Shown: positions 1-56,250 of the stretch, piece after piece
Numbering within the stretch: the stretch's first letter is position 1
Layout: each line of letters opens with the position of its first letter
Source of the DNA: a virus
Lineage: Duplodnaviria > Caudoviricetes
Virus record (IMG/VR): IMGVR_UViG_2548876794_000003
Coordinates: 96,001 to 160,000 of that record
Direction: 5' to 3' (one strand)
DNA length: 64,000 nucleotides
Position numbers and translations under genes: made by a program
Notes under the pieces: model-generated
What the model was told of the DNA's origin: nothing
Databases searched by the model: none
Seen by the model: the letters and a program-made list of their open reading frames with translations, nothing else

Positions 1-4
1 TTTA

Positions 5-3000
5 TTGAACACAGGAGGATTCGACAAGTCCGCAGAAGATATGCTCAAGATGCTTAACCAAGATGATGAATCGTTGTTACAGAACATCGTTACAGGTTAC
101 AACGATTTTAATAAAGACAACTCTGCATTTTTAAATAAGAACGTATTATCGACGATGCGACGTTATGTTGAAAATCCAAAGACTGCCCTTGACCATGTAT
201 CAATCAAGAACGACTCACAAATGACCGGTAAATTATTTGGTACGGAAAATCGTTCAAGTAACTTCATTGACGAACTTCGTTTAGAGATTGAAAAAGAAGC
301 CTATATGCGACAGGCTCGTCATGTACGCACAGACGATGGGCAAGTAAACATTCGTGGACTAAGCGACTTAATTGGCGGTTCTGGTGCGCAATATGATCAA
401 GTAAGGAACGCACAAAATGTAGCTGACTTCGCTACGTTCCAATCTTTAACAGGTGTTTATAAGGATGCCACTGACAACAAGTCTGTACAAGAATCTGCCG
501 ACATGGCAGAACAAGCTATCAAGCTATTCGCTCGTCGTGAAGGTGATGACCAACGGAATGATATATCCGAACGATTAGTAAACAATGTATTAAACAAGAC
601 AAACAAATTTGAAACAAGCTATGACATCCATATGCAACAGGAGAATATCGTAGAAGGTTTTGGTAACGATGCGTGGATACACATGAATAAGGCAATTTCG
701 CCAATGGACTTGCTTCGAAACTTGAACGATAAGGAATTTAGAAAGTCATTCGTTAAGCAGTTTGTAGCTGGCCGTAATGATATGGAGAATGTGACAACCG
801 CTACGATGATGCCATATTTCTTCCTAAATCGCCTAAATGATCCGCTTGAAAAAATCGGAGTAGGTTTGTCATCTGAATATCGCGGAAGCTCTGTAGACTT
901 AATGCGTGGCATTGTAATGAAAAGAGCACTACCTATTGCAATGGGTATTACTGGCTATAACTACATGAACGACTTTTCGCAAGCAACAACAGGCGTCGGC
1001 ATTACAGAGTCGTTCTTATCGAACGCTGCGAACATTGACTTGGGTATGCGCGGTGTCGCTGATATAACAGGTGTTAGCGATTGGTTAAAAGATGAACGTG
1101 CTTTAAACCCAATTGCTCAATACCTATTCGGTGAAGAGTATATGGATAAAGATGAACGTGCTGACTACTATCAAAATGGTTATAGCGCAATGCGTAAAGG
1201 CCGTTGGTGGTCGTTCGGTTCATTAAATGAATTTAGAGGTAGCAAGGTTCAATACTGGCAACCTAATTTGTTACGTCGAGTAACCAGCGACTATCACGAT
1301 GAATCCTTGTATGATGGATTTCTTGATAAATGGAGCCACAGCTGGATGCCAACACCAACCAACCCACTATCTCCATTAAATGCGTTGATGGATCCATATT
1401 GGTTGGAAAACAAACATTACGAAGATCGACCGTATATGGTGTCGGGAAAAATGTTCACCGAAGAAACACCATGGGGACCACTGTTAAATGCGACAGTTGG
1501 TAACGTATTGAAACCACAAATACAGATGCACCAAGAACGATTGAACAGCGATTATGTCGATGTACGTGCCATTATTGAACGACGAAACAGAGAAACGATG
1601 GAGCGAGCTAATGGTGAAAATCGCAACCTTGCTCGATTCAAAGATGGTGCGATTGAAGCGGTAAACTTCACATCATATGATGCACCCACTGAATCACAAC
1701 GCATTGTTCGTATAAATCAAAGCAATGGTCAATCTGATGTCACAGCGATGAACTACGGTGCATTCACTGGCGTTACAACAGGTGAAGCGTATATGCGTCA
1801 AAAAGCAATTAGTGAAGATGCTGCAGGTGGAGGAGCTACTGGCGAATTCTTAACAGGCGTAGCAGAAGGAACCAACCAAAGGCTAGGTAACTCTGCATTG
1901 ATGGACTACGGTAGCAAAGCTGGCGGTGTTATGGACCTAATGAGCTCGATTGGCAACGGTGGCGAAATCAGTGTCGGTACTGGTTTAAGCTTCGCAGATC
2001 GTGCGGAAATTGAAGGTGCTGGTGGCAATGTTGTCGCAAAACTATTTTCAACACTACGCCGCGAAAGTAATGAATCCATGAATATCGTCAGTGACTTGAA
2101 CTATAACACGCTAATGAATACTCGTTCCTATCGGCCTAGTAACTCACACGTACGAGAGGGTGGTGTTGTAACAACAGAATCACTTTACAAAGCGAGCGCT
2201 CGTTTCGGTGATGGTATTTTGGATAATAAAGAAGCAATATCCGATTTGAAAGGCTTATCTGGCGGGGATGACATGATTGGCGAGCTGGCTTACTCTGCTC
2301 GTTTCATTACAGGTATTTATGGTTACGGTTCATTCTTAGCTGCAGGGGGTAGCGCTAAGAACAAAGTATCTGACGCAAGTGACATGACCAGTCCTATTCG
2401 TAGCTTCTGGGATGCAAACCTTGGCGGTGTTGGTGGTAACTATCTTGAAATCTTCCGTCGTTTTATTCCATCAAATAACTTCTTAGAAAACAACTTTAAT
2501 CCATTGATGAATACTATGCCCGACTGGATGCCAGATAAATATCGTTTTGGCGATCCGTATACAGCGCTCCCTAAAGGTGAAATGCGTATGCCGGGTAAAG
2601 GGTATGAATCACTTAACGAGCTGCATTCTGATCAGTATGGACGTTATGGAGCATTTGACCGATACAAAATACTTTCGGATATTTCGCCCGGTTCAGAAGA
2701 GTACAAGATTTGGCGTGATATTGCGAAGGAAACGGTCTCTAGTCCCGAACTAAAAGAAGAGATGGACCGTATTAACGATCGTGTCAAAAAGCAAAACGAG
2801 AACTATGACTTCTTCGATTATCAATTTTTAGGAAAATCCACTCGTAAAGAGAAAGTGCAAATTTCCGAAGTAATCGACAACAACTTCTTCAAAGTAGCAG
2901 GGGATGACAAAACATACAGATTAGCTGGTGTGTCGGTCACAAATAAAAACAAAAAAGACGACGCATTATCTTTAACTGATGGCACACGCGCAATTGACCA

Positions 3001-4729
3001 ATTCCTTGCACCAGGTCAAGAAGTCGTGATTTCACGAGACAAAGATACATTCGACGGCACCGACCAACAAAGCGGCGCTGTTAGTGCGGCGCTATTCATT
3101 AACGGTAAATCTGTTGGTAAAGAATTAATGGATATGGGGTATGCTGAAAAACGTGGTGACACGTCCGCTGCAGCTGCAGACAGTGTTTATTCTGCCACAC
3201 AGATTGCGCGTGGTAAGGCGTATGAAGCAATCGCCCATCTACCTATCCCTGTTTTTCAACAAAAATTCATGAAAGTACGAAATCCATTAGAATCGTATAA
3301 ACAAGAATTGGTGTACGGTACAAACTATACAAGTTGGAATCGCCCAATCGACAGTATCTTACTACCTGCTTTTGAACGTTCATTAATGAGTGACGGCGAA
3401 GTACTAATAGGAATTGGCGCAGCCGTAGCGAATCATCTCACTTATAAAATGACAGATGATAAAGCAAGCCGAGCTGTTGCCAATGTTGCGATGGCACTAT
3501 CTAATCGTGGTGCATTCATTGGTGGATTCTTAGCTAAAGGATTGAGCATACCAAACTCGCAAATTCGTAAAGCAGCCTTTGTTGGTGCTGGTGCGCAAGT
3601 TGCTGGCTACCTTTACACTCGTCAAGACCAACCGCTTCAAGAAGGCGTAATGGGAGGACTATTAGGTATGGGTGTTGGTCACTTATTGAAAGATATAGGC
3701 ATAAGAAAAGGCGGAGCAATTGGTGCCGCTACAGGCTTCCTTTTCGGTGGTATGAGTTCATCTGCTTTGAGTGACGACGCTTATGGCTTTGGCAACAAAT
3801 ACATTCCAGAACGAACTCGTGAAACTTGGGATATGCGTGAGTACTATGACCGCTTAGAATATGTTAAATACTCTGGTCTATTTGAAAAGGCTGCGCGTAA
3901 AGCGAAGCATAAAGAGCATATGGATATTGGGAAACTCGTAAAAGATTACGAGAAGCAGCGTGAAGAAAACCGTAAAGTAAATGAGCAACTTGGAGAATAT
4001 CGTCAAATCATCATGCAAGCTTACGCTCCGGGAAGTCAGCGTCGTGACCAACTGTTGAATGAAATTGATGGCAAGATGAATGTATTGAAAGAATCAGAAT
4101 TCAACATTGCAGTAGGCGACTACGCGAAATCAGCATTGATTTATAAACAAGCGATGGACTCTACCATCTATGGTCTAAAAGACGATGCTACGTGGTCTCA
4201 AATTGTACGTGCTACACCGACCAATGAGCGTGATCATTTTATGGCCTTCATGAAAGAAGCTAATCCTAAAAAACGTAAAGAGATATTAAAATATGTCTCA
4301 CCTTACGAAGCTAAGGTCTTGAAAACCGCTTGGGGTATGGAGACTGAAAAACAAGAATCGAATAGCTCTTACTTTGAACATCACCGTATGCCAGGGGCAA
4401 CATGGAGTGGGTGGCGTCCAGACAAAGACTTATCGGACATTCAAGTAAAAACTATACATAATGAAGGCCGATTGCTTTCAGACTTCGGATTCTTTGAATC
4501 ACAGCTACGTGATCCAGACGTTATCCGAGCAGACCAAGCTTCGCCTAATCAACCCGGTAGCGGCTTCCTACAGACGAAAATGGCAATGATTGCGACATTA
4601 AAAGGATATGGGCTAACTAATGTAAACGTAAACGTTGAGCCTAAAAAGGAAAGTGGTATGGAAGTTATCGCAAATGTGGCGAATATTACACAATACAATA
4701 TCCATAACGCTTTAACAAATTTACTATAA
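5..4729 (+). CDS. Giant virion or ejection-type protein, 5'-truncated by the window edge; degenerate SNase (thermonuclease) fold and Gly-rich hydrophobic segments
   Basis: Frame is open from the window start. SNase-like pattern EVIDNNFFKV..YRLAGVSV..LFINGKSVGKELMDMGYA (about 2849-3145) lacks the catalytic DGDT/DAPE/DRYGR residues. Gly-zipper hydrophobic stretches at about 3398-3760. Confidence 0.6.
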   Translation: MNTGGFDKSAEDMLKMLNQDDESLLQNIVTGYNDFNKDNSAFLNKNVLSTMRRYVENPKTALDHVSIKNDSQMTGKLFGTENRSSNFIDELRLEIEKEAYMRQARHVRTDDGQVNIRGLSDLIGGSGAQYDQVRNAQNVADFATFQSLTGVYKDATDNKSVQESADMAEQAIKLFARREGDDQRNDISERLVNNVLNKTNKFETSYDIHMQQENIVEGFGNDAWIHMNKAISPMDLLRNLNDKEFRKSFVKQFVAGRNDMENVTTATMMPYFFLNRLNDPLEKIGVGLSSEYRGSSVDLMRGIVMKRALPIAMGITGYNYMNDFSQATTGVGITESFLSNAANIDLGMRGVADITGVSDWLKDERALNPIAQYLFGEEYMDKDERADYYQNGYSAMRKGRWWSFGSLNEFRGSKVQYWQPNLLRRVTSDYHDESLYDGFLDKWSHSWMPTPTNPLSPLNALMDPYWLENKHYEDRPYMVSGKMFTEETPWGPLLNATVGNVLKPQIQMHQERLNSDYVDVRAIIERRNRETMERANGENRNLARFKDGAIEAVNFTSYDAPTESQRIVRINQSNGQSDVTAMNYGAFTGVTTGEAYMRQKAISEDAAGGGATGEFLTGVAEGTNQRLGNSALMDYGSKAGGVMDLMSSIGNGGEISVGTGLSFADRAEIEGAGGNVVAKLFSTLRRESNESMNIVSDLNYNTLMNTRSYRPSNSHVREGGVVTTESLYKASARFGDGILDNKEAISDLKGLSGGDDMIGELAYSARFITGIYGYGSFLAAGGSAKNKVSDASDMTSPIRSFWDANLGGVGGNYLEIFRRFIPSNNFLENNFNPLMNTMPDWMPDKYRFGDPYTALPKGEMRMPGKGYESLNELHSDQYGRYGAFDRYKILSDISPGSEEYKIWRDIAKETVSSPELKEEMDRINDRVKKQNENYDFFDYQFLGKSTRKEKVQISEVIDNNFFKVAGDDKTYRLAGVSVTNKNKKDDALSLTDGTRAIDQFLAPGQEVVISRDKDTFDGTDQQSGAVSAALFINGKSVGKELMDMGYAEKRGDTSAAAADSVYSATQIARGKAYEAIAHLPIPVFQQKFMKVRNPLESYKQELVYGTNYTSWNRPIDSILLPAFERSLMSDGEVLIGIGAAVANHLTYKMTDDKASRAVANVAMALSNRGAFIGGFLAKGLSIPNSQIRKAAFVGAGAQVAGYLYTRQDQPLQEGVMGGLLGMGVGHLLKDIGIRKGGAIGAATGFLFGGMSSSALSDDAYGFGNKYIPERTRETWDMREYYDRLEYVKYSGLFEKAARKAKHKEHMDIGKLVKDYEKQREENRKVNEQLGEYRQIIMQAYAPGSQRRDQLLNEIDGKMNVLKESEFNIAVGDYAKSALIYKQAMDSTIYGLKDDATWSQIVRATPTNERDHFMAFMKEANPKKRKEILKYVSPYEAKVLKTAWGMETEKQESNSSYFEHHRMPGATWSGWRPDKDLSDIQVKTIHNEGRLLSDFGFFESQLRDPDVIRADQASPNQPGSGFLQTKMAMIATLKGYGLTNVNVNVEPKKESGMEVIANVANITQYNIHNALTNLL

Positions 4730-4754
4730 GGGAGCTTCGGCTCTCTTTTATTTT
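4730..4754 (+). terminator. Intrinsic terminator
   Basis: GGGAGC-TTCG-GCTCTC hairpin (cUUCGg loop) followed by TTTTATTTT, directly after the stop codon. Confidence 0.8.
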
Positions 4755-4837
4755 AAGCGAAACTATTTCATTTTGTAGATAATAGGATAAAATACAGGAT
4801 GCATTTTAAGATGCACTATTTAAAAAGGAGGGTTTTG

Positions 4838-7800
4838 ATGGTACAAGAATCATTTTGGGAAAACAGTTCCATTAAACGATTTAATGGAAAGCGACAGAAA
4901 GCATTGATTCAAGCTCGTTCAGAGAAGTCCGCACAGGATGCACTCGGCAACACACAAGCTGGTTACAAGGCTTTAGTAAACGAACACATGAAAGCGACTA
5001 GCTTTATGTATGCCAACCAGATTAAGGATGTTGTGTTAGATAACAAGTCACCTTATAAATTCTTAATGAACACTGGTAAAACAGCATTAAAAGAAAATCC
5101 AGATGTGCTTAATTCATATGCAGATTTCTTCAATGCAGCAGCGTCCACTTTTACAGTAAAGGAGAAAAGCGGACAGAAGTTCATGGCTGAAAACGTAGAG
5201 GTCAACAAGATTTTTACGATTAATAACCAATCCCGAGGTACAGAGACAGTTTCACTTAAAGATGAAGAAGCGGCATGGAAACGTATGCAGAAAGGCGCTT
5301 ATACCGTATTTGACTTTGAAACGTTCGGTGGGCGCAATGCGTTCGGTGTGCAAACATTGGACCAACTTACAGAATATAGTTTCGAAACCTTTGACAATAT
5401 TAAAGCGAAGAAGTCGTCGAATCGTATCGAGGGCGTTGTTGGGATTACCGATGCGAAGAAAGATGAATTTATCAAAAAATTCATTGGTGGCTCACGAGAC
5501 ATACAGGACACACGTAATTTAAATGGTGGATTAATTGACTTCACTCGCTTCACTGAATTAGAGCAAATTCAATTGAATACTTTAGCTCGTATGGGTAGTA
5601 AAGAAACAACAATTTCAAATGTGGACGAACAATTCAAGGATGGTTTTAACGGGCGCTATCGCGTAACTAAAACAATCGCCAATGAAGATGTAGAAATTTC
5701 AAAAGAGAACGTACTGCGTGGGGTTGAACGTCTACATGATATTGGTACTGTACAGCGCGCAGGTTCAGTGAATGGCTTACAAGTTTGGGAGAAAGATTTA
5801 GCTGATGCGATGTCAATTGCAACGAAAGGCGACCATGTATTAACTGGTCACAACGTAGCGCAGGCCGACGTTCCTTGGTTTAACCAAACATTAACTCGTG
5901 GATCGAAGCCATTTAGGGACTATTACTTTAAAGAGTTGCAAGGCGAGTTGGTTAAAACAACTGGAGGAGCTGTATTTGATTTACTTCCACTTGCACGTAT
6001 GGCCGACTTGAATGGCGCACTCTCTCGTGAGATTGAATCAAATCCAAACGCTCAGAAGCGACTTGGCGAAATGGGTTCTACTGCATTGCAACAAGAAACA
6101 TTGGTTGCAACGACACTATCTAAAAACGTCATCGAAAATACGACGAACGCACCACATACAGCTGCAGAAGATACCCGCCTATTTAATGAGATTATTCGAG
6201 GGGGGCGCATCAATTCTTCTGATAAAGAAACTCTTGTCGAAAAAGCTTTCCGTATGGCTAAAATGAATATGACAAACGAAGCGATACCTTTGACAGCTGC
6301 TCCATCTGAACAGCAAGTGAAGGAATCTAATGGCACAACGAAAAATATTGTAATGAACGCACGAAAAGGTCTGTTCAATTATAAAGGTTTATCTGGTGTC
6401 ATTGGTTATAATGTGGACCAGATTGATGGACGTATCCGTACTTCTAATGGATATGAAATTTCTCCAGATGGCTCAGTTAAGAGTGGATTTGGTGATGCTA
6501 TCATCAAGAAAGATGTCAGCTACGTTGCACAAGGCTTACAGAAATTAACGACAGGCAATGACGATGGCATGCTAGACATCATGAAGCGTATGGGGAAAAC
6601 CGACGCACATATGGCAGAAGGTGAGCTTTACAAGCTGGTTCTTTCTCCAGTACGTGAGGGGAACATTGAACCTAGCGCTAGTACGGCATCTGAAAAAACG
6701 AACATGAAGATGAATATGCCTGTAGCTCTGCTAGGTTCCCGCGATGAAATTCAACGTTATCTAAATGGCAATATGATTGCCTTTGCTAATGCGACCGAAC
6801 AATTGGACGGCAGCGTCAAGTTAGATCCGATTGAAAGTGGAATGAAGGAACTGGCGAATTACAACACAGTTACACATAAAGTAGAAGAAACGACGCCTTT
6901 AGACGTCATTAAACGCGGTGAAAAGAAAGCATTGAATGATTCATTTAACCGTAGTATCACTGAAAGTGAACTGCCGAAGATTGAGCGATACATGAAGTTC
7001 AGCGACACTGTAAAAGAATTTGCGAAGGAAAAACATATCGACATTGGTTCAGCTCGTAATGCTGTGATGGATGGCGCTATGGAAATCGCTTATCAAGTTT
7101 CTCGTGGTCGAACAATTACGAAGGATATGCAAGATATGGTTGGGCTTGATGCCTACAATATTCTTTCCAATAACGGAAAGCATGCACTTGATTATCGTTC
7201 ACTCGACAAGGCTGCCGCTTCACTAGACTTTATCGAAAGCGCACGCGCACCATTAAATCAACTGATTCAAGGGATTAAAGGCAAAAAGTTAGGCTCCTCA
7301 AAAGAAGAGCAGTTCGTATTCAAACAAGTGATGCAAGGAATTACTGCAGAATTGAATGATAGCTTTGTGCAAGCGAATGATCCGAAATTCAAAGCAGCAA
7401 ACAAACCATACATAAGTGTCCCTTCATACGAAAAGAATGTCATTCAATTATCTCGCCCAAGCTCGATGCGCGAGAAGAATGGTCGTGTAATGGGGCTTGA
7501 TACGCAAGAGAAAATGCTGCGTATCAATTTAGATGACTCACCAGAAACAAAACTGATTAACGCTGTGACAAAAACACTTCGTCGTAAAAGCGACGGTGCA
7601 ATCAAGAGTAGATTACTTTCACTAGCGGAGGAAAATAACATCGCATTAGATGGCACAAGTGAAATGAATCGTTATCAAGTAGCTCAAACTATTGTTGATA
7701 AGATTCACACGCAGCGTAAAGTCGATCCGCTTCTATTCGCACAAAGCGGTGTGTCAGCGAACGACTTTTCTAAAGGATCAGTAATACTTAGCAGTGAAGC

Positions 7801-10800
7801 ACATGCAGATAAGATTTCCTCTTACATTGACGACTACCTATCAAAATACCAGAAGGGGACGGTTGTCGATCTAAATCATTACTTTACAAAGTCGGGCGCA
7901 CTTAATAAGAATACGTTGATCAATGACGTTGTTGACAACTTCTTAATGGACTCAAATTACAATTTAAAAGACCATGGTTTTAATGATGAACAAGTTAAAT
8001 TTCTGCAGGATTCACGTAATCTTCGCCGCAAAGATTATACGAAATATGCGGAGGAGCTAATCAACGGTGTCCATAAGTCAGGCGCAAGCTTAGTATTCGA
8101 TGCAGATAAAGGCATCTTCGGTATGACTAGAGGTGGAGAGTACACAAACCTAGCCAATATCGTAGCGCGTGACCGATTCCATAATGGTGTGTTCTATACG
8201 CAAGTCGGCAAAAACCGATTACGCACAGGTACTTACTTAGGAATGTTTGGCGCCGGTGACAAAGATGAATACGCTTTAAGTGATGTAAAAGCTGTGTCTG
8301 GACTCGGAAAATCAATGGATGCTGCGCCAGGGAATCTGGACTGGAGTATTAAACGAGCAATCGAGAATGACGATGATCCGACGAAGAGTGTGGAGCGATG
8401 GTTAAAAAATATTAATAGTTCATTGCGTGAAGGTGCAAGTGTTGATTATTTCAATGAGAAAGATATGAAAGCCCAAGGGCAATTGAATATCTCTAAGTTG
8501 ATAGATAATCTAGGCAAAGTAAAAGGCATTGAGAACATGACTGCTGACGACGAAAGTGAAATTAAAGAACTTATTTCAAGAGCTCGCAAGGACAATTTCA
8601 GTTTTAGTAAGATGACCGATTCTACAAATATGTACATGCAGAAATCAATTAGTCCATTGCTACAATTCCTAACACAGGGCGTGAAAGACGAGTGGGTAAA
8701 AGACTCTGTAAAACGTATCGGAAACCGCGTGAAATCGAGCGCCAATGAAAAAGGGAATTATGGCGTAATTGACTTTCAAACAGAACTTGAAATGTTCAAT
8801 AATGCTTCTCGTGGTATTGATGCGCAAAACAGTTTTATTTCATTTGATGAAGATACAGCGCGTAAGGCCCTATTAACACCAGATGAATATACCGGTGAAT
8901 CGCTTGATAAGCGTGTGGGGATTGGTTCCAACTTGCGTACAGAATTAGGGGCTGCTAGAGACAACATGCTTTCAGAGGAACACACCCAAAAACGCCGTTC
9001 ATCATTTGAGCTTCAACGTGCTGCCTACTCACCTGCAGAGCTACATATGAAACTAAAAGAGGCTTATTTAGCAACAGACGATCAAGCGGAACGCACATCT
9101 ATTCAGAAACTAATGAATATCGGTAACGTGACAGAGGGGGCTGCTGTGATGAACTCACGAGTAGCCGATGCGATTATTCAAGGGTATGACAAACAGAAAA
9201 TAGATTTCTCAAAAGACCTGTTCTCACAAGAATTGAGCGCTGACGTAGAATCTATGACAAAAAAGGAATCGAAAGCCTATAAGAAAAGGATGGACAACAT
9301 CTCAAAAATGGCTCCTGTGTTTAAAGACAAGGGCAATCGCGGTTTCGATTTTAATTACGGAAAAGGTTACTATGTACGTCATGGTGAAACGCTCGCAAAT
9401 GTTCGTTCCGAATACGGCAACAATGTGTCTCCAGTAGCAGCGAAGTACGATGGCTTTGCTCGTTTCGGCTTGTTCACACGAGATGGTGCTCTTGTTTCGG
9501 CAAAAGATGCACAGGAGTTTCTACGCGAACAAGCTCGTAAAAAGCAAGTAAATATCAGTAACATTCAAGAGATGATTGATTTCGCTAAGAATTACTACGA
9601 CACAAAAATGTATGTTGATAAGCTAGACATGACAACATATCGTAAAATCCAAGAAGATAATCTTGAAAAACATATGACAAGTTTTACTTATCAATCATTA
9701 GGCGCCTTAGATGACCACAGTAAACCGTCACAAGGAATTGGAGCAGCATTAGATAACTTAGGCTTAAACCATTTAAAAGGTCGTACGCTTCGTCCAGAAT
9801 TCTTTAACGAGCTACTGTCTGGTGAAGCTTATGACAGTGGTGTACTAAAGACTGCAGCAAAAGGCGGCATGGGTTATCAAAAAGCAATTCAATCGGCTGG
9901 CTTTAAAGATGAAAGTGAATTCAAGCGTCAGCTAGAGAAGGAGCGTCACTTAGCCGGTGACATCCTGCAACAAGTAACAGGAGCAGACGCAATCGTTCAC
10001 TCGGATGATGTAAGCCACAAAAACGCTGGTGCTCGTATCAAATCTGCAATTAATGATATGCACTACAACCAATTAAACGCAGTCATGGACGAGCAAGGCT
10101 TGGCACGAGCTACGCCAGAAGCTATCCGAGAAGCGTCTCAACGAGTCGTTGATGCAGTGGGCGATGCCTTCGAAATCAACGGAAAAGATGGATTGTTTGT
10201 AGATAAAAATAACCGTATAGGATTGACTGGTGGCTTCAACTACTACAACGGCGATGGCGTAAATGTAAACCGGTTAAAAGAAGCATATGATGCGATGATG
10301 CCTGGCACTGATAAACCAGAAAATCAATTTGATAACATCGGGGCTTCTAACGGTAAGGTATCACGCCATGGTTACAATCTAATTAACGACACAACCAACT
10401 TCCAAGGTACAGGACGTACAGAAGTATTGGATGACACAGAGATTAATCGTAATAAAATAGCGATGAAATCAGGATTAAAAATGACTGACCGAGAATTGAA
10501 TATGTTAGAGTTACAACGATACGATAAAGATGAATTAAGCTCTATTCGTTCCGCAATGAATGATGACGCACTATTCAAACGTGCCTTTGGCCATGTATTG
10601 AATGACAATATGGAATTAGCCGACGGCGCGCAAGACATGAAAGTACTTGGACGATATACCGACGAAATCCGTCTAAACCAATTTGCTTCTGCGGGAGATG
10701 CATTATTGCTAAATGCTGACGGTAGCCAAGCGATGCAAAATGTCGAGAGCAACCTCATTAAGTCAGCTAATGCGCTACAAAAACAAAGTGGCGGTGCCGT

Positions 10801-13429
10801 TTCGTTAGAATCAGCAAAACAATATCACTCTGTTGTTAGTAACACGCAAGCGATGCGGTTCAACAATGGCACATTGTCCTTGAATGATTTATTAGAAGAA
10901 GGTAAATCTACTGCCGATAAAAAAATGAACTTCAAAGTAGTTAGCATCGGAGACCTAACTGTATCAAACGGCAACGATGGTGAGATCATTATGAAGGATG
11001 GTAGCTCTGTTTATAACCAAAATGTAGTGATTGATATGAAAGATAAATATTTAGGTGGCGTACCAGAGCGCATGGGTAATCGTTACTTAGCTATTGGTGC
11101 TGTACCGACCTCTGTAATTGGAGATGAAGTGTTAGACAAAAATCCTCACAAAACAATCAATTCAATCGTTTCAGCTCGACAAGCAATTATTGATGGCGAT
11201 GCTGGAACAGCCGAAGCAATTGAACGGAAGAAAGAATTAATCGTTGAAAAAGCAGGGCAATTGAACGATGACTTGTCAGAAGTAGTATTCGGCAAAAAAG
11301 GTGCTATCGGGCAACTAAGCTCTTATCGTGCGCAGCACTCTGCATTCGGTAAGGCGATGCTGCAAGATACTGCTCATGCACTGAATACATACAGTGAAGG
11401 TATGTTCCCGATGCTAGATAACGTTGAAATCGACGGCAAAAAAATCCGAGACCATTATGCGCAAGGTGGTTTAATGGATGTCAAAGTATTCGGTATGGGG
11501 CATGCAGAACGACTTGGCTTATTTGACCAAGAGTATCTGGACCACATCGGCTCTACAAAAGAAGATGTCATCAAGCAATTAGAAGGTGGCGTACTTGGTT
11601 TATCTCAACGTCATCCGGCTGTATACGAAGGTACAAAGCGTTCAACATACTTTGTACTGAACCGTTCGCTAGGCGATGAAGTCATCGAAAGTGCTGCGGG
11701 TGCATTGACTGCTAAAACCGATGCCGATGGTGATAGCCCTGGTAGTGAGCTTTCATCTTACACAGATAAGAAAACAGGACGCCGAGTGGACTCATTAGAG
11801 TATGCATTAAAAGGAGGAGCTGCCGGTGGGCAATTCTCTGCAGACATTAACGAAGCTTTCCAACAGCAAAAATCAAGTAACTATATCAACGCGTATGTTC
11901 GTAACCCACACTTCCAATCGAAGCTAGATAAAGCGAACGCAGAAGCATATGATATTATTCGTGACATTGACTTAGGCGAACGAGGTGAAGCAACCGCTGC
12001 TATGCAAGATGTAGCATGGGGTAAAGACGGCTCGGAGTTGGGCAAACTCCGTCCATCGTTACCACACTTATGGAATGAAAAAGAACGTGCAGAACTAATG
12101 GACGCTAAATCAGACCTACGCAATAAAGCATTGGCTTCTTACGCAACTGAACATAACTTATCGACAGCAGACGCTCTTACTCAACTACGTGGATCTGAAG
12201 AGGGTGGCAGAAGTTTTGAACTACACGAGGACTTTATCTCTCGACAAAAACAAGTAATTCGAGATACTGGTGATGCTGCGCAAGCGGATCTATACGAACG
12301 TGCTATGATTTATGAAGATAAATCCGACAGTTTCAAAGCCGCACAGATGGGTGCATTAAAACGACAAAGCGCTGGTGAAATTAACCTTAGCATGTACAAG
12401 GCTCGTAAGCTGCGTAACCTCTCTATTAACAATGGTTATACGAATGATGAATCACGATTCCTTGAGCATGTATTCGAAGCTTCCGAAGAAGCCTTCCTAT
12501 CTCCGAAGCATAGTGATAAAATCATCGTTGAAAATCCAGACGTGATGGACCAATTCAAACGAGCGTGGGGCTCTGCTACCGGTACACCTCAAAAAGGTGA
12601 TGAAGCGGGGACAGACCTACTGAAACAATACTTCCGCGACCAGACATCAACTCGTATGCGTTGGGAGAGTGAATCTAAGGAAGTTGTTGCGACGAAGATG
12701 GACCGCGCTGCGGATATGATTCAAGAAATCTTTAATAAGTCGGAGAACGGAAAAGATTTCAATATGTTCTTAGGTGCCGTTGGTCAATGGAAAAACGGTA
12801 TTCCAACATCACGAATTGAAGATGCAATGATTGGTATGAACTCATCATCTATGATGTCGCAAGTATATGGTGCGCTCTCAGAAGGCAATGGCGACCTTGG
12901 ATGGGAAACCCGCGACCTTCAAATGCGTGAGCGTATAGAAGGAGCTTTCAGTGACTCAAGACCGCTTCAAGGTAACGACTATATGCCACCAACAGTCCAG
13001 TCGCTTCGCAGCGAGTTTTCTGATAAAATGGGTGGCGTTAAAAACCTACTAAGTAAAGTTAGTGGTAAACAAGCGGTATTTGGTATTGCTGGTATGGCAG
13101 GAATGTCAATGCTAGGCGCATTCGTTGGCGGTAATCCTTCTGAGCCAACAGGACAACATGCAGCGCAAGCCCCATCAGCCGGTGGGTATGAATCAATGCC
13201 GTTATCAGACGGCACTGGATCGGTAAGCCAAATTCCTTCTGGTCAAGGTTATGTCGTGAATGTCAACGCACAATCACCAAAAGGACAAGCACATGCACAA
13301 GAAGCAATTCGACAAGCCGTTCGACAAGCAAGCGGCGGTTCTGTCAATATCTCTATGACAACGCGAAACGAATACAACAACTTGGACAACGAAAGCGTCA
13401 CAAGTATCCTGTCAAATGCGTTTAATTAG
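4838..13429 (+). CDS. Single-polypeptide two-barrel RNA polymerase (fused beta/beta'-like) with N-terminal DEDDh 3'-5' exonuclease; probable virion protein
   Basis: AGGAGG RBS at 4826-4831 favours ATG 4838 (2863 aa). Exo motifs FDFET, GHNVAQAD, HTAAED. Beta-like motifs GNVTEGAAVMNSRV, RKIQEDNLEKH, ADAIVHSDDVSHKNAG, SGLKMTDRELNMLE. Beta'-like motifs GKKGAIGQLSSYRAQHS, QRHP, KTDADGD, ALKRQSAGEI, EEAFLSPKH. Confidence 0.8.
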   Translation: MVQESFWENSSIKRFNGKRQKALIQARSEKSAQDALGNTQAGYKALVNEHMKATSFMYANQIKDVVLDNKSPYKFLMNTGKTALKENPDVLNSYADFFNAAASTFTVKEKSGQKFMAENVEVNKIFTINNQSRGTETVSLKDEEAAWKRMQKGAYTVFDFETFGGRNAFGVQTLDQLTEYSFETFDNIKAKKSSNRIEGVVGITDAKKDEFIKKFIGGSRDIQDTRNLNGGLIDFTRFTELEQIQLNTLARMGSKETTISNVDEQFKDGFNGRYRVTKTIANEDVEISKENVLRGVERLHDIGTVQRAGSVNGLQVWEKDLADAMSIATKGDHVLTGHNVAQADVPWFNQTLTRGSKPFRDYYFKELQGELVKTTGGAVFDLLPLARMADLNGALSREIESNPNAQKRLGEMGSTALQQETLVATTLSKNVIENTTNAPHTAAEDTRLFNEIIRGGRINSSDKETLVEKAFRMAKMNMTNEAIPLTAAPSEQQVKESNGTTKNIVMNARKGLFNYKGLSGVIGYNVDQIDGRIRTSNGYEISPDGSVKSGFGDAIIKKDVSYVAQGLQKLTTGNDDGMLDIMKRMGKTDAHMAEGELYKLVLSPVREGNIEPSASTASEKTNMKMNMPVALLGSRDEIQRYLNGNMIAFANATEQLDGSVKLDPIESGMKELANYNTVTHKVEETTPLDVIKRGEKKALNDSFNRSITESELPKIERYMKFSDTVKEFAKEKHIDIGSARNAVMDGAMEIAYQVSRGRTITKDMQDMVGLDAYNILSNNGKHALDYRSLDKAAASLDFIESARAPLNQLIQGIKGKKLGSSKEEQFVFKQVMQGITAELNDSFVQANDPKFKAANKPYISVPSYEKNVIQLSRPSSMREKNGRVMGLDTQEKMLRINLDDSPETKLINAVTKTLRRKSDGAIKSRLLSLAEENNIALDGTSEMNRYQVAQTIVDKIHTQRKVDPLLFAQSGVSANDFSKGSVILSSEAHADKISSYIDDYLSKYQKGTVVDLNHYFTKSGALNKNTLINDVVDNFLMDSNYNLKDHGFNDEQVKFLQDSRNLRRKDYTKYAEELINGVHKSGASLVFDADKGIFGMTRGGEYTNLANIVARDRFHNGVFYTQVGKNRLRTGTYLGMFGAGDKDEYALSDVKAVSGLGKSMDAAPGNLDWSIKRAIENDDDPTKSVERWLKNINSSLREGASVDYFNEKDMKAQGQLNISKLIDNLGKVKGIENMTADDESEIKELISRARKDNFSFSKMTDSTNMYMQKSISPLLQFLTQGVKDEWVKDSVKRIGNRVKSSANEKGNYGVIDFQTELEMFNNASRGIDAQNSFISFDEDTARKALLTPDEYTGESLDKRVGIGSNLRTELGAARDNMLSEEHTQKRRSSFELQRAAYSPAELHMKLKEAYLATDDQAERTSIQKLMNIGNVTEGAAVMNSRVADAIIQGYDKQKIDFSKDLFSQELSADVESMTKKESKAYKKRMDNISKMAPVFKDKGNRGFDFNYGKGYYVRHGETLANVRSEYGNNVSPVAAKYDGFARFGLFTRDGALVSAKDAQEFLREQARKKQVNISNIQEMIDFAKNYYDTKMYVDKLDMTTYRKIQEDNLEKHMTSFTYQSLGALDDHSKPSQGIGAALDNLGLNHLKGRTLRPEFFNELLSGEAYDSGVLKTAAKGGMGYQKAIQSAGFKDESEFKRQLEKERHLAGDILQQVTGADAIVHSDDVSHKNAGARIKSAINDMHYNQLNAVMDEQGLARATPEAIREASQRVVDAVGDAFEINGKDGLFVDKNNRIGLTGGFNYYNGDGVNVNRLKEAYDAMMPGTDKPENQFDNIGASNGKVSRHGYNLINDTTNFQGTGRTEVLDDTEINRNKIAMKSGLKMTDRELNMLELQRYDKDELSSIRSAMNDDALFKRAFGHVLNDNMELADGAQDMKVLGRYTDEIRLNQFASAGDALLLNADGSQAMQNVESNLIKSANALQKQSGGAVSLESAKQYHSVVSNTQAMRFNNGTLSLNDLLEEGKSTADKKMNFKVVSIGDLTVSNGNDGEIIMKDGSSVYNQNVVIDMKDKYLGGVPERMGNRYLAIGAVPTSVIGDEVLDKNPHKTINSIVSARQAIIDGDAGTAEAIERKKELIVEKAGQLNDDLSEVVFGKKGAIGQLSSYRAQHSAFGKAMLQDTAHALNTYSEGMFPMLDNVEIDGKKIRDHYAQGGLMDVKVFGMGHAERLGLFDQEYLDHIGSTKEDVIKQLEGGVLGLSQRHPAVYEGTKRSTYFVLNRSLGDEVIESAAGALTAKTDADGDSPGSELSSYTDKKTGRRVDSLEYALKGGAAGGQFSADINEAFQQQKSSNYINAYVRNPHFQSKLDKANAEAYDIIRDIDLGERGEATAAMQDVAWGKDGSELGKLRPSLPHLWNEKERAELMDAKSDLRNKALASYATEHNLSTADALTQLRGSEEGGRSFELHEDFISRQKQVIRDTGDAAQADLYERAMIYEDKSDSFKAAQMGALKRQSAGEINLSMYKARKLRNLSINNGYTNDESRFLEHVFEASEEAFLSPKHSDKIIVENPDVMDQFKRAWGSATGTPQKGDEAGTDLLKQYFRDQTSTRMRWESESKEVVATKMDRAADMIQEIFNKSENGKDFNMFLGAVGQWKNGIPTSRIEDAMIGMNSSSMMSQVYGALSEGNGDLGWETRDLQMRERIEGAFSDSRPLQGNDYMPPTVQSLRSEFSDKMGGVKNLLSKVSGKQAVFGIAGMAGMSMLGAFVGGNPSEPTGQHAAQAPSAGGYESMPLSDGTGSVSQIPSGQGYVVNVNAQSPKGQAHAQEAIRQAVRQASGGSVNISMTTRNEYNNLDNESVTSILSNAFN

Positions 13430-13440
13430 GGGGAACTATT

Positions 13441-16400
13441 ATGGCATCTACAAAGACTGCTAAAGAATTAAAAGAGCTTTATGGCACGATGAATAAAGAA
13501 AATCTCATTCTAACAGATGAAGATTTCTTCTTGCCGTCCATGGGCGACATGTACGTCAATTCAGTCGATAGCGCACGATTAAATGATTTTGCCGCTTCAC
13601 TGGAAGGCAATGCAGGTAAAGACAAAATGACGAAAGCTTCGTTCTATTTGGAAAATCCATTTGCGAGCGAACTTGGCTTCTATGAAAAGAATCACCTTAT
13701 TTTTGTAAAAGCAAAGCCATTGATTACAACGCAAGATGTACTTGCGGGAAAAGTCGATGGAGACACACTGACCTTCAAGGTCAGTGCTGTCGTTGGTGAT
13801 GACGATGGCAAAGCAAAGTCAAAGATTCAAGAAGAGGTAAAACGCGGTACTGAAAAAATCATCAACGCTGTTAATGACAAGGCTTCATTAGATTTGATGG
13901 ATCGACTAGAGAGCTTAGGATTAGATTTAAGTGATCCTAAGAATAGCGAGTACAAAAAATATTTACGTGAATCAAGTGAGCAAGAATTTAAAATTCGTTT
14001 CCTTGGAATCAATGCACCAGAGGTTTCAAAATGGACACATATGTCGAATATTAATGCGGATTATTTAAAAGTCGAATTTAAAGAATACGGAGACATCAAG
14101 AATGATGAAGCACATTATTATTGCCGACGCTACGAAGGCCGCAAAGATAAAGAAGTAATTGCCTTCGTAACATTGAGTGATGCAATGAGCCATGACGACG
14201 GAATTGACTTGGGTGAAATGTTTATCGAAACGAATAGCGAATATAGTCCATTAACAAAGAGTCGTATTAAATCAGAGAAAAAATTAGACTTCTATTATTT
14301 AAATACAGTAGGTGAGACTGAGAAGAAACGTCGTGAACAGGGTGATTTAGCGCAACGACGCGTAATCAAAGCAATCAATGCTTCTGCAGATGGTTATGTT
14401 TACCTAATGTTAAACACTTCTACTTTGAAGATGGCCACAGACCGCTATGCTTCTATCTTCGATGATGTGACAGCACTGAGTAAAGGTCCTATTAATAAAT
14501 TAAAATACATCTTTAGCCAACTTGTTAGCTACAACGATTATTCATATAAAGGCTATAATATGTGGGGAACTGACGCATATAATCGTTTCCTTGGAACACC
14601 ATATGTCATTACAGACGAAGGTTACGTGAACTTAGCTAAATATGTGATTGCTGGTGACGACGAGAAAATGGTTGACGTATTTCCAGACTATGGCGATACA
14701 CCTTGGTCTGGCGTAAACAATAACTATGCCGATAAGTATTTCAATTTAGCCAGTTATGATTTTGACAACTACGCTCTATATGATGCGACGAAGGTTGCTG
14801 GCGATGATATTGATGACCGCAGAAAGGTACAAGAAGAAATCTTCGGTCGTTCATTTGATGAATTGCGAGAATGGACTGTCGGTATTGGTGACACATTCTT
14901 CTTCGTTCCACCAACAAGTATCAATGTCACGAATGAAGTATCGAATGAACGCCTACGCACAATGCGTTCTAAAGGCTCGATGGTTAAAGGTGGCACCAAG
15001 GTAGATAAGTATATCGAGCTGGACTTGTATTTCAATGACGAGCGCGGTATCAATGGCTACCCTTGGGAGACAACTTTACCAAACGGAGATAAAACTACAT
15101 ATTATATGAATGGATTACGTGCTTTAATTTCGCAATTCAAGTTCACGCCATTTCTACCAATTGAAAATCGTTACATTAATCAGATGTGTAATATCGAAGC
15201 GGTCAATTTACTAACGTTAGAAATCTCTACAGTTGAGGGTTTCCCTCGAACATTAGTAGCTCGTGTCGTACTACAAGCATTTGATTGGCGTACTTATATG
15301 CCAGATTTACCGGCAAACATTCAAATGGATGACCAGCAAGATGAAGATGAATACTTCAACATTTTCGCTAAATCAATCGACTACGCTACGATGCGCTGGT
15401 ATTACCAACGTGCTATTCGAAGAGGGAATAAAGTAGATGGTCTTGATGCAAATTCCATTAAATACATAGAAAAAACATTGGGTAGCAATACTGCATTACA
15501 ACCAATGCACTTTGAAGATTCCGGTGTGAAGTTTTACGTTGCAAACGAAGATTACTTGAAGAAAATGCTTCAAGTGAAAATCAATGCACTTGATACGTCC
15601 AAAACATACGCAGTCTTAACAGATCTTGAAAAAGAACTGTTGGTCGACTTAGCTCCTTTAGGCAAAGCTGCAGATGATGCGCTTACTGACAAAATGATGG
15701 GGCAGTACACAACGAGCTTGATCGATAAATTAAAACCAGCCAAAGATGGCCGCCTACCTGTATTAACTGCAGAGAAAGCAAGCAAAGGGTTGGTTTATGG
15801 AAAAGCGAAACTGGGTTCTCCTAAGATCATGCGAGTTGAAACAAACGGCTTTATTTTTGATGACGAGTACTTCCCAGAATATATGAATCTTGTTCAATCG
15901 AGAATGGTTGACGCATTCAAGGATGTTCAAGGGAAAGAAAAGATTCTAAACGATGTGACACCTTACTACAAAGTAGGAGATGACTACATTACGTTTGGTG
16001 TGTGTCTGGACTTGTATATGCCAGGTTTTACAACACCTGCTCAAATTACAAACCTTATTGCGGAAGCATCTACCGCTACAGGAGTGAGCCGAGATAAATT
16101 TAATTTAGTAGATGAAAAACTATATATCAGTTATCGCGTTGAATTAAAAGATAAAGTTGGTGTAAAAACAGGTATTGACCGATTCATTACAACGGATTAT
16201 GACGGAGTTATCCAATATCCTGCTTTACCAAACACAACGAAGTCGGGCTACGATTATCAGATGTTAGCTTATGCTCAACAATATAAAAAAATCAAAGACA
16301 GCGATGAAGACACCCCGAACGAAGAAGTTGCTGATACAGCGAAGAATGTAGATTACATTAGTCCGTACACTTTGACTTATGATCAATATGAGATGGGCCA

Positions 16401-19400
16401 TGTGACCGTTCAAAATATTTCTGTTAGTACAACGAACAGCTTTATGAAGTATGGACTGAACGGTAGCGAAGGTTACGCCAGCCAGTACATGGGTTCAGAA
16501 GATTCTATTATTGAAATCACGCTTCACTCAATGGATGAATATGCAGTGGGGATGATTAATCAAATGACGTCGCTTCAAACACGCTACGCTCGTGATTACC
16601 GCTTGATTCTTCCAGCCTGCCCATTCCGAATTGATACAGAACTGACACGAACACTTGGGATTAATGAAATCATTTTAGATAAGGTAGAAGTAAGCACTGT
16701 TGCAGGAGCGCCGGGCTTATACGACATACATATTAGTGCTATCTCAATGGACCGTACTTTGCGTAGCCGAGAAGCATTAAACAAAGTGAACGATTGGACG
16801 AACAATGGTTCTATTGGTAACGATAACGCAACAGAGCTTAAATTGAAGTCTTATGACAATTTAAACGAAACATTGGCTGCGGCAGAGTTATATCCAGACC
16901 TTGAATTGCCAACAGTGAAAGAACTTGAATCGAAAGGATTTAACTTTATTCGTCATGTATTCGACAGAGATCGAAGTTATCCAGATCCCGATTTCTATTT
17001 CGTGTATGGGTACTTACTACAAGCAGACGTATTACGAGATGCTGTTTCACAAGCGTACGAGCAAAGTATTGCTGAGTCTACTTGGACTGATGAATACGGC
17101 GGTTCTGTTGAGCTGGAAACAAATAAGGAATTTGGGTACATCACTAAAAAAGAAGGCAAGAATACGAAAGACTTGCACGAAAGTATTAGTAAAGTTGAGG
17201 CAGCTGCAGATAAATCGAAGAGTGTCACAGAATACGTTAATAGTGGAGAAGCCTTAATTGATATTATCCAGTCTGCAGAGGATGCAGAAGGTTGGAGCGT
17301 TTCACCAAAAATACGTGTGCTAGGAATCGACCAGTATCATCAAGATTTATTGCACAGAGATGATGCAATGAAGAAAGGTAAGACAGGCGAGGAACGACAA
17401 GGCAAGTGGTTATCAGAACGAATGGATGAAGCAAGAGAAGCAAGTAAGCTAATCAAAGCCGCTTTAGATAAACCACTGTCAAGCATTGGTCAAGCACATG
17501 ATGCTCGTAAAGATGATGACTTTACTCGTCGTTTTAGTGACCGCGTAATCAGAGAATGTTTGAACGAGGACTTTGGCGATGCTCTCGCGAAATTAAATTT
17601 CTCTGCAGAAGAATTTACGGACAGCGGATCGCAGACAGCAGATTCATTCATCAAGATTTTAAAATCAATCGCTACAGCATTTAGCAGTAAAAAAGAGTGG
17701 ACTAAGAAGGCCGGTAAAGATGGCGACGCTAATTTTAAATATTTAGGTTACGCAATTGATACTGATACGAACAGCTCTGGTAATCGTTCTGCCGCTTCGA
17801 TTGATGATGCTGTTGAGAATGGCGTAGAGTTTTCTGTTTTCGGATTAAAAATGCTGAAACGCAAAAAGCTTAAAAAGCTTGAAGTATATGGCGAAATCCA
17901 TAAGCGTGTAGACGATGATGTAAGCGTGAATATGAACTATTACACGTTAGATCCGTACTACCGTCGTGAAGGTGTAACAGCAAAAGAAATTGAAGAGTAC
18001 AAGCGCGCGTGTTGTACAGATTACACTGTTGCAGCGCAGGCTTTCGTTCGTAATACGATGCTATTCCTTGCAAAAGCAATCGACGAATACATCTTCCCTA
18101 ACATTACATTTGACTTGATGGCCAGTGAACTTCGCGAAGCAATGAAGAGTGTAGAGAATAAGAAACTAGCAGATGAAATCAATGATTACGAAGATTTCCT
18201 TAATGACGAGGATAGACCAATCAATGCTGGTAAGTTATTTATCTGTTCATTAGCTGCAGCGACCAATTCACAAAAAGTTCTGGAGTACGTGAAGCAAGGT
18301 CGATATGAGGACTTAAATCAAATGGTTTACCAGTCTATTAATGAAAAAGGTACGGAGCTTTACGACAATAGCGAAGCAATCTTCTATCGTAAATTCTTCC
18401 GTAAACTAGTTGATTACAAAATGATTGATAACCTCGGAGCAGTAGGGAACGACGATAAGAACATCGTAACGGATCGACGTCGTGAATATCGTGAACGTGT
18501 TTACATTGAAGCGGCGAACAATCCTAGCGAATACATTACGCACTCGTTCCACGATATGACTGTCAATGATATGCGTGGGCGTATGGCTAGAGCATTTCCA
18601 ACGTTCTATATGTTGTTAGTAGATGAAGGGCGACGAATTGGTCTTTGGAAGCTACATGATAACTTCTATAACATCAACTCTATTTCTGAAATCGCAATCA
18701 CAAAATCTCGTAAGAATCCTGCAGACACGATTAAGATAACGATGTCCAATATGTTCCATACATATACAACGGATGACGAAGATATAAAAGTAAATTTTGA
18801 ATATGACTATCGAGATGTATTCAATTCTATCTTTAACTCCGAAGCTTACTACGAAAAAGAAGAAGCGAAGCGAATGGGGCAGCAACCATTGAATCGCGCA
18901 AAATTAAAACCTGGCATTCGTATGCATGTGCGTATGGGCTACAATTCAAACGCAGCCACTTTACCAATCATGTTCAACGGTAGAATCGCTGAGGTGTCAG
19001 CTGGCGAAACAGTTGAAATTGTAGGGCAAGGTGATGGTGTTGAGCTATTAAATACGATTTCCGTTCAAGAGTCTAAGTCCCTTAACCAAGGGAACGGTAA
19101 GCTATGGCTGTACTCAAAAGTAGATGGCCAACAAACGCCAAAAGAAATATTCGACAAAGTACTATGTAATAAAGGTACGATGACGTCGCGCGCCTTAGAT
19201 ACTGTATCGAATGGTTACTATCGTTCATACAATGAATACGGAATTGTTCACTTTGGCGATCCACGTTACAACGTTATATTCGAAAATGGTGAGCCATCAC
19301 AAAATATCTATGAAGCGACTACTCAACCTAAATGGTATAAGGAGCAATCTAAATCAGCAGAATATGGTTTAGAGGAGCCACCACAGATCAGCATCATGAC

Positions 19401-54991: not shown

Positions 54992-55001
54992 GAGACAATT
55001 A

Positions 55002-56073: not shown

Positions 56074-56250
56074 ATGGCAATTAAAGAGGGCAACTGTTAT
56101 TTAAACTTAGTTGTTTCACAAGAAGTAAAAGACGCTATTAAGGCGATTGCAGAAGAGGAAGGCAGCACAGTATCGAAGATTGGTGCTCGTATCATCTCTA
56201 GGTCAGAGGAGGTGAAGAAAATTGTGGAAGCTAAGAGACAAGCAGACTAA
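56074..56250 (+). CDS. 58-aa ribbon-helix-helix (CopG/Arc-like) DNA-binding protein (not in the ORF track)
   Basis: Manual translation MAIKEGNCYLNLVVSQEVKDAIKAIAEEEGSTVSKIGARIISRSEEVKKIVEAKRQAD. Alternating beta strand, helix, G-x-T-V-S turn, helix; AAGGAG RBS. Confidence 0.7.
   Translation: MAIKEGNCYLNLVVSQEVKDAIKAIAEEEGSTVSKIGARIISRSEEVKKIVEAKRQAD

Follow-up and report, generated by a model that had tools for sequence, protein, structure and literature searches.

Injected RNA polymerases let a phage start its own gene expression programme without the host enzyme, despite host defenses that target transcription, and they have been shown experimentally in N4-like, phiKZ-like, and crAss-like phages and in one Thermus siphovirus. 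The published enzyme nearest to the one described here is gp96 of phage P23-45 (also found in P74-26, G20c, and TSP4), a virion RNA polymerase (vRNAP) fused to a tape measure protein (PDB 8H2M/8H2N; Chaban et al. 2024, PMC10770324). In P23-45, gp96 transcribes the pre-early genes, among them the gene for the nonvirion RNA polymerase (nvRNAP) gp64 (PMC10770324). We analyzed a 64,000-nucleotide (nt) window, bases 96001-160000 of a 178,960-bp viral contig (IMG/VR record IMGVR_UViG_2548876794_000003) whose completeness is estimated at 78%; positions below refer to this window unless they are marked as contig coordinates (G000:C1). A gene on its plus strand (4838..13429) encodes a protein of 2863 amino acids (aa) that has the conserved residues and the predicted fold of a single-chain two-barrel RNA polymerase (RNAP). 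We consider it likely that this is a giant tail-module protein, made up of an exonuclease, a middle region, the two-barrel RNAP, a membrane helix, and a C-terminal domain, which is delivered with the virion and starts transcription.

Conservation and predicted fold of the polymerase region

The gene is an uninterrupted open reading frame (ORF) on the plus strand from 4799 to 13429, in which the ATG at 4838 gives the 2863-aa protein; the database copy of the protein (P0002) is also 2863 aa long and starts at the same ATG. A strong Shine-Dalgarno sequence, AAAGGAGGG (4824..4832, + strand), lies 5 nt ahead of this codon. Residue numbers here follow the translation from 4799 (P0001), so that residue n starts at nucleotide 4799+3(n-1). 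A preliminary description of the ORF had listed ten motifs resembling those of cellular beta and beta' subunits, and all ten are present, at 9122, 9362, 9641, 9983, 10469, 11291, 11609, 11720-11734, 12353, and 12476-12511. The codons of its lysine pair lie at 9644 and 9668, and the DADGD motif (11720-11734) begins 37 codons past the Arg of the RHP at 11609. DADGD is the sole D.D.D of the protein. Composition predicts ~1.1 D.D.D and 0.09 D.DGD, and since about one D.D.D is thus expected by chance, such a list of motifs proves nothing alone: Homologues and the fold are needed as the test.

A HMMER search of 1.84 billion representatives returned 24 proteins, 21 of them full-length (2650-3150 aa) and 16%-38% identical to the query. 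A word-based search of 5.8 billion proteins recovered the query alone, and eight family members when run with the family profile. Nothing usable came from searches of Pfam, PHROG, and PDB sequences with the full-length protein: In the library searches, the only matches were to AcrIIA4 (276-306, sub-threshold) and to a hypothetical protein (E = 0.42). Residues 1400-2650 had zero tblastn matches among 50,697 phage records, and a scan of viral contigs for relatives of the protein found none.

We aligned residues 1430-2629 of the 21 sequences (alignment A1; mean column identity 28%). Twelve columns are invariant, and the 116 residues of the motifs described earlier take in nine of the 12 (hypergeometric P = 9e-8). 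These nine are K1616, K2166, R2271, P2273, D2308, D2310, D2312, G2526, and K2570; A2018, N2022, and A2098 are invariant outside the motifs. Four further residues (E1623, K1624, H1740, and R1898) are conserved in at least 90%-95% of sequences, K1624 in at least 95%, and the beta-like motifs at 9122 (GNVTEG...) and 9362 (KGYY...) are moderately conserved, chiefly at an E, an R, and a G. The preliminary description had proposed invariance of DxDGD and both lysines as a check on its polymerase claim: DxDxD, RxP, and K1616 are invariant in the 21 homologues, and K1624 is kept in ≥95% of them. Neither the homologues nor the model showed any of the outcomes that the description had named as refuting. 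As judged from the alignment, the residues held constant are those that a two-barrel polymerase needs, namely, the Asp triad, the RxP, the Lys pair, the bridge-helix Gly, and a later Lys. A chance DxDGD in a structural protein was rejected on this pattern of conservation. When the family profile was compared with PDB sequences, phiKZ gp55 (beta') matched exactly at hRxPt...aDxDGD (E = 0.027); it is the best RNA polymerase in that list and third overall, behind two outer-membrane-protein chains.

We built an AlphaFold2 model of residues 1430-2629 on alignment A1 (pLDDT 78.5, pTM 0.71). In a Foldseek comparison with the PDB, the top 50 matches are all RNA polymerase entries, nearly all of them beta' chains (probabilities 0.75-1.0, mostly >0.9), and they include bacterial and plastid enzymes and the nvRNAPs of AR9 and phiKZ. 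When these matches were realigned, QDE-1 came top (Z = 10.8, root-mean-square deviation [rmsd] 3.6, 282 residues, model 13..1166). The beta' chains follow at Z ~9, with alignments that run from beta' ~12 at model ~595 through beta' ~1150-1250 at model ~1195. A VIA search of 48,161 PDB representatives, independent of Foldseek, has nothing but two-barrel RNAPs at ranks 1-17: QDE-1 (Z = 10.3), AR9 (8.8), Mycobacterium tuberculosis beta' (8.5), phiKZ gp55 (8.4), P74-26 gp62 (8.4), and P23-45 gp96 (7.5, model 13..1185), together with Pol I, II, III, IV, and V and the archaeal, vaccinia, and African swine fever virus (ASFV) enzymes. After rank 17 come generic double-psi beta-barrels (DPBBs; the designed 7dww/7dbo, Cdc48-N, VAT-N, a formylmethanofuran dehydrogenase subunit, and barwin), all of them on model 750-940, which is the predicted barrel with the RxP and DxDGD. 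The single-chain enzymes QDE-1, P74-26 gp62, and P23-45 gp96 align over model 13..1166-1185, covering both barrels. In an ESM Atlas structure search, all eight listed rows are RNAP clusters, the best being 911-aa phage proteins with Rpb2_6 and Rpb1_2 in one (585 residues, model 9-957, TM 0.48 by target). PolD and RNAP beta chains are absent among the top 50 structural matches listed, which is not evidence against similarity.

According to the model and to the QDE-1 and Atlas matches, the single-chain two-barrel RNAP module occupies residues 1442-2626 (9122..12676, + strand, as for all features of the gene). The strands of the beta-like barrel (9599..9685), recognized by conservation, hold K1616 (9644-9646) and E1623-K1624 (9665-9670), with both lysines in adjacent model strands, E185-190 and E194-200. 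A clamp-like region and the start of the beta'-like part are placed at 10751..11314: The beta' alignments begin at model 594-596, opposite beta' ~12-24, and the archaeal RNAP clamp domain 3qqc_A matches model 556..743 (Z = 5.8). The putative catalytic barrel, DPBB-A (residues ~2179-2369; 11333..11905), contains the invariant RxP (11609-11617) and DADGD and is the part matched by the generic barrels. It is followed by a bridge-helix-like helix of 53 residues (residues 2493-2545; 12275..12433; model helix 1064-1116) bearing the invariant G2526, and the beta' alignments run on through this segment to model ~1191-1197. The trigger-loop-like EASEEAFLSPKH (12476..12511), with the invariant K2570, is named by position only, right after the helix that follows the bridge helix. 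Taken together, the conservation and the model support an apparently active single-chain two-barrel polymerase with parts in beta-then-beta' order and leave little room for alternatives. The earlier suggestion of a complete beta-beta' fusion polymerase is therefore supported, both by conservation in the 21 homologues and by a model that matches only two-barrel RNAPs at ranks 1-17.

Relation to described two-barrel polymerases

The resemblance to P23-45 gp96 is one of organization. Both are giant proteins in the tape measure slot that contain a single-chain two-barrel RNAP, an RxP...DxDGD, and membrane segments, and in both phages a second, nonvirion two-barrel RNAP is encoded elsewhere in the genome, here as a probable assignment. 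The differences are substantial. P23-45 is a siphovirus, whereas the phage described here is a contractile-tailed jumbo phage; the polymerase is N-terminal in gp96 (327-1124 of 5002) and lies in the C-terminal half here; gp96 is clamp-less and "flat," whereas the model has a clamp-like region matching the beta' N terminus and the archaeal clamp domain; and gp96 is without an exonuclease, whereas a DEDDh domain is present here. Sequence likeness is limited to the catalytic loop (hhalign probability 1%), and the structural match to gp96 (Z = 7.5, rmsd 4.0, 241 residues, model 13..1185) ranks below those to QDE-1, beta', and gp62. Because the likeness is confined to the catalytic loop, the Z score is lower, and a clamp-like region is predicted, the protein appears to work like gp96 while standing outside the gp96 family.

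The preliminary description had drawn its analogy with gp66 of phi14:2, a crAss-like phage (PDB 6VR4); gp66 too is a virion-delivered single-chain two-barrel RNAP of giant size (2180 aa), which serves early genes. That analogy gives way to the one with gp96: gp66 belongs to a podovirus-like lineage, has a DFDxD motif and no exonuclease, and its match in BFVD is nonsignificant (S0A2C3_2, E = 0.047, probability 0.20). Both gp66 and QDE-1 favor single-stranded DNA templates (bioRxiv 10.1101/2020.03.07.982082).

In shape, the best Atlas matches are fused beta-beta' proteins of phages (RNA_pol_Rpb2_6 plus RNA_pol_Rpb1_2), and for AR9 and phiKZ, the beta' N-terminal subunits score Z = 8.4-8.9. Compared with the phage fusions, the protein reaches no Pfam RNAP threshold, is three times longer, is encoded in the tail module, and has exonuclease and membrane-anchor parts. 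With QDE-1 and YonO it shares the order of a beta-like barrel, a beta'-like barrel, and a bridge helix in one chain. QDE-1 has the highest VIA score (Z = 10.3-10.8, rmsd 3.5-3.6, ~282 residues over both barrels), a rank that may just reflect one chain covering both barrels; PF05183 (RNA-dependent RNA polymerase, RdRP) gave no Pfam match at E ≤ 1, and the likeness is at the level of the fold only. Since QDE-1 is followed, among the best shape matches, by beta' subunits and beta-beta' fusions of phages, the enzyme may have originated in the multisubunit clade.

Other domains, gene context, and cultured relatives

The protein's N-terminal portion is predicted to be a DEDDh (DnaQ-like) 3'-5' exonuclease (residues ~167-481; 5297..6241), with the motifs ExoI (DFE, 5306-5332), ExoII (HNxxxAD, 5846-5875), and ExoIII (HxxxxD, 6155-6181). 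Across 20 homologues, no variation occurs at D172, E174, N352, D357, D394, H453, and D458. Although no Pfam model reaches threshold in this region, the core of an AlphaFold2 model aligns with Pol III epsilon over 170 of 174 residues (Z = 12.1, rmsd 3.0), the top 50 of 48,161 chains are all DnaQ-like exonucleases, and RNase T, epsilon, and ExoI lead the Foldseek list. By its sequence and model, the domain is intact and apparently active. Both sets of catalytic residues are invariant amid a mean column identity of 28%, which points to purifying selection on two active sites.

Between the two enzymes lies a middle region of ~950 residues (~482-1441; 6242..9121) conserved at the family average. 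Pfam, PHROG, and PDB sequence searches gave no match to it, and in an Atlas feature search, residues 560-1430 brought up only unnamed viral clusters below threshold (scores ≤ 0.79), which are uninformative. The best-conserved stretch of the whole protein is its last 125 residues. These contain a conserved, hydrophobic, Gly/Ala-rich membrane helix (residues 2759-2778; 13073..13132) and a C-terminal domain of ~60 residues (GY-V-N-I-N-A ... N-V-N-V-x-M-N-I; 13241..13426) in which a G, a Y, and two N are invariant (alignment A3). This domain is probably an anchor to the tail tip or hub. It has a weak, positionally exact match to the C terminus of gp146 of phage 0305phi8-36 (E = 0.004, probability 8%), and BLAST of the C terminus against the upstream giant protein and gp146 gave weak matches only. 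Predicted globular enzymes account for at least 1500 of the 2863 residues. A classical tape measure protein is a long and largely helical ruler, extended in shape, and its length determines that of the tail.

The gene is part of the tail module. Upstream on the same strand are genes for terminase, portal, protease, major capsid protein, and tail sheath; then come three giant genes (2148, 2876, and 2724 aa, the second counted from 4799), of which the polymerase gene is the middle one, and then the baseplate wedge. The first giant gene (2-4729 in the window; whole gene G000:C1:94283-100729, L009:2283-8729; + strand) has no family match, its sole signal being a weak Gly-zipper match at residues 1787-1826, and its 2148-aa product could be the actual tail ruler. 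In the 70-nt gap after this gene we observe a terminator-like hairpin (4728-4747, + strand) with eight pairs, a TTCG loop, and a following T-run, and no sigma-70-like promoter on the plus strand after it; because of the hairpin, the polymerase gene may be expressed less than the 2148-aa gene. The third giant gene (13441-21615, + strand) starts 12 nt past the polymerase gene and matches phrog_20474 over 1954 positions (E = 7e-183). Its tblastn matches are the baseplate hub gp147 of 0305phi8-36, which carries peptidoglycan-degrading domains, and genes of Moorella phage MTATph1, Bacillus WH1, Edson, KLEB27-3, and Acinetobacter ME3. On this sequence similarity, the 2724-aa gene ties the contig to the 0305phi8-36/WH1/ME3/Moorella MTATph1 lineage, and the phage is a 0305phi8-36-like jumbo myovirus with a contractile tail.

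The order in 0305phi8-36 runs from tail chaperonins gp143/144 through gp145 and gp146 to hub gp147. The slot between tail chaperones and hub is syntenic in 0305phi8-36, WH1, ME3, and a 252-kb JGI contig that bears a homologue and has its giant genes in identical order. Given the match in gene order with 0305phi8-36 and the JGI contig, the polymerase gene corresponds in position to the "tape measure" of this lineage. In 0305phi8-36 this is gp146, annotated as a "hypothetical tape measure protein" mainly because of its length, and detected in virions by mass spectrometry (PMC2147016). At the profile level, hhalign with the family found nothing against gp146, Moorella MTATph1 CDS0027, or ME3 gp36. 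In Moorella phage MTATph1 (L012:8184-15540), the middle giant gene, at 1309 aa, is short and has a transposase gene after it, and the slot may be disrupted there.

Two cultured phages also have three giant genes between their tail chaperones and hub, and the middle one encodes a candidate polymerase. The first is gp095 of Bacillus phage vB_BceM_WH1 (BCO16148.1, 2515 aa; L015:7154-14701), annotated as a "virion structural protein," which has RYP-37-DHDGD and no DEDDh motifs. Against the family profiles (hhalign), it matches at the catalytic barrel (probability 86%, E = 5e-6) and at the C terminus (probability 95%, E = 3.9e-8), and the top structural match in BFVD (E = 3.3e-11) is very probably this protein, as assigned by fragment length. 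The second is gp36 of Acinetobacter phage vB_AbaM_ME3 (AND75197.1, 1603 aa; L014:9939-14750), with REP-43-DHDQD and a C-terminal membrane helix. It has zero profile-level sequence similarity to the family and is probably the third BFVD match (E = 2e-5), as assigned by organism name and fragment length. The BFVD matches also include one from Microcystis phage MaMV-DC and a "minor tail protein" of an uncultured siphovirus. WH1 gp095 is thus a distant relative in a cultured phage, and ME3 gp36 probably is; both look like unrecognized polymerases. Both have an RxP...DxDxD and a C-terminal membrane helix, and both are annotated only as structural or hypothetical. We found no paper on WH1 gp095, and in our literature searches the WH1, ME3, and metagenomic proteins were nowhere described as polymerases.

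A probable second polymerase is encoded ~32-37 kb upstream of the window by two adjacent minus-strand genes of 848 and 759 aa (G000:C1:59262-64247; L008:1262-3541 and L008:3701-6247). YRSP...DWDMD occurs in P0032, the product of the first gene of the pair, for which PF05183 RdRP clusters are the nearest in the Atlas (score 0.92, 175-180 shared features); P0032 has no Pfam match at E ≤ 0.1 and zero tblastn matches among phages. On these sequence features, the pair is a probable YonO-like nonvirion RNA polymerase, apparently split just past the catalytic loop. A comparable gene in 0305phi8-36 is orf99 (PMC2147016; PMC7824862). By analogy, the two-polymerase set would fit the virion-plus-nonvirion scheme of P23-45, which we regard as a lead rather than a demonstration.

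Further genes on the plus strand of the window encode a primase (49845-50873; phrog_16345, E = 3e-40), a sigma-factor-like protein of 338 aa (54933-55949; C-terminal match to sigma-factor and transcriptional-activator PHROGs, E = 3e-6), a RecJ-like exonuclease (56222-57919; E = 2e-96), and a DNA polymerase (59725-62961; phrog_405, E = 4e-249). The primase, the RecJ-like exonuclease, and the DNA polymerase constitute the replication module. Outside the window, an RHS/polymorphic-toxin-like protein of 1987 aa (G000:C1:26708-32671; L004:6708-12671, +), with seven RHS repeats (E = 3e-25) and DUF6531, is encoded by a gene that stands alone on the plus strand within the minus-strand gene block of the phage.

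Probable virion delivery and rival explanations

The phage probably injects its own transcription enzyme; the argument for virion delivery comes from the position of the gene. The protein would be expressed together with the tail genes and incorporated in the virion via its C-terminal part, at the "tape measure" position. On infection, it would be expelled through the tail, its hydrophobic helix would engage the membrane, and the polymerase would transcribe the first phage genes without the host RNA polymerase. These first genes would include that of the upstream YonO/RdRP-like nonvirion polymerase. The exonuclease would most plausibly act on the entering DNA end or on nucleic-acid 3' ends at the polymerase. 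More speculatively, it might resect the 3' strand and leave a single-stranded template, the form favored by crAss gp66 and QDE-1. The broader proposal, that 0305phi8-36-related jumbo myoviruses, WH1 and ME3 included, deliver a single-chain beta-beta' polymerase from the tape measure slot and that the exonuclease here resects the 3' strand of the end that enters first, to provide a single-stranded template with no promoter melting, we consider rather unlikely.

Several points weigh against delivery of an active polymerase. For this protein and for all motif-bearing homologues, activity and presence in the virion are inferred. The Z scores of 8-11 are "middling" by the tool's own scale, and since no single score is strong, the polymerase call rests on the uniformity of the match list together with the conservation of catalytic residues. 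Paired double-psi barrels in a model were a check named in the preliminary description; the catalytic barrel is indeed matched by generic DPBBs, and single-chain RNAPs span both, with the beta-like barrel matched as part of these two-barrel alignments. That the lysine pair faces the Asp triad is a prediction. The virion evidence for gp146 transfers only weakly, because gp146 (L013:9059-16672) has no DxDxD at all and at most its C-terminal 60 residues are in common. In a k-mer search, no repeated promoter motif stood out convincingly among 77 upstream regions of the 179-kb contig, and since a sigma-factor-like gene is present, the host polymerase is probably used too. Finally, a folded polymerase of ~130 kDa would need unfolding to pass the tube of a contractile tail.

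This last point, that a folded enzyme of such size is poorly suited to the tail tube, also speaks for a competent polymerase that is not delivered with the virion and acts in the cell late, for example, in late transcription or packaging-linked RNA synthesis, as do the putative status of the motif-bearing homologues as virion proteins and the hairpin at 4728-4747, which is compatible with separate regulation of the giant genes. Giant polymerases do, however, go through tails in P23-45, N4, and crAss-like phages. The chaperone-hub position is strictly kept in three lineages, the best-conserved part of the protein is a membrane helix and small domain of the kind found at tape measure C termini, the C-terminal domain is common to WH1 gp095 with its virion annotation, and a separate, probable YonO-like polymerase would already fill the intracellular role. 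Late intracellular action is thus less probable again than the broader proposal above. We also considered, as an improbable case, a structural tail, tape measure, or ejection protein with a noncatalytic fossil of a polymerase domain, which we rank as the least probable reading of all: That gp146 fills the slot without a DxDxD means that the slot needs no polymerase, but in the family at hand, at 16%-38% identity, the invariant columns are the Asp triad, the RxP, the second-barrel Lys, and bridge-helix and trigger-loop residues, and all five catalytic residues of the exonuclease are invariant too.

A different chemistry appears very unlikely, though not so remote as a fossil domain. The two barrels could belong to a DNA polymerase or primase (archaeal PolD-like) or to an RNA-templated polymerase, with the DEDDh domain as its proofreader: 3'-5' proofreading exonucleases normally partner DNA polymerases, Pol III epsilon is the best match of the exonuclease, PolD is a case of DNA synthesis by the two-barrel fold (PMC10770324), and the original description of QDE-1, the top structural match, was as an RNA-dependent enzyme. 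However, PolD is absent from the top 50 of either VIA list, compared with 17 RNAPs, an absence that is in itself no evidence against similarity. In the model, the long bridge helix and later helices align with beta' to ~1150-1250, whereas between PolD and RNAPs no common conserved elements were found beyond the two barrels (PMC10770324), and the genome encodes its own DNA polymerase and primase.

Injection of a single-chain two-barrel RNAP would extend the solution of a polymerase in the tape measure slot to contractile-tailed jumbo phages, in a version that looks nearer to the fused beta-beta' enzymes than to gp96 and that adds a conserved, apparently active exonuclease to the predicted injected polymerase. 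Our results also suggest that the "tape measure" label given in this lineage to the middle giant gene should be reconsidered. WH1, whose host is Bacillus cereus, and Acinetobacter ME3 are cultured phages in which the idea is directly testable. If the exonuclease does make the template for the polymerase, this would be a new way to begin transcribing an injected genome.

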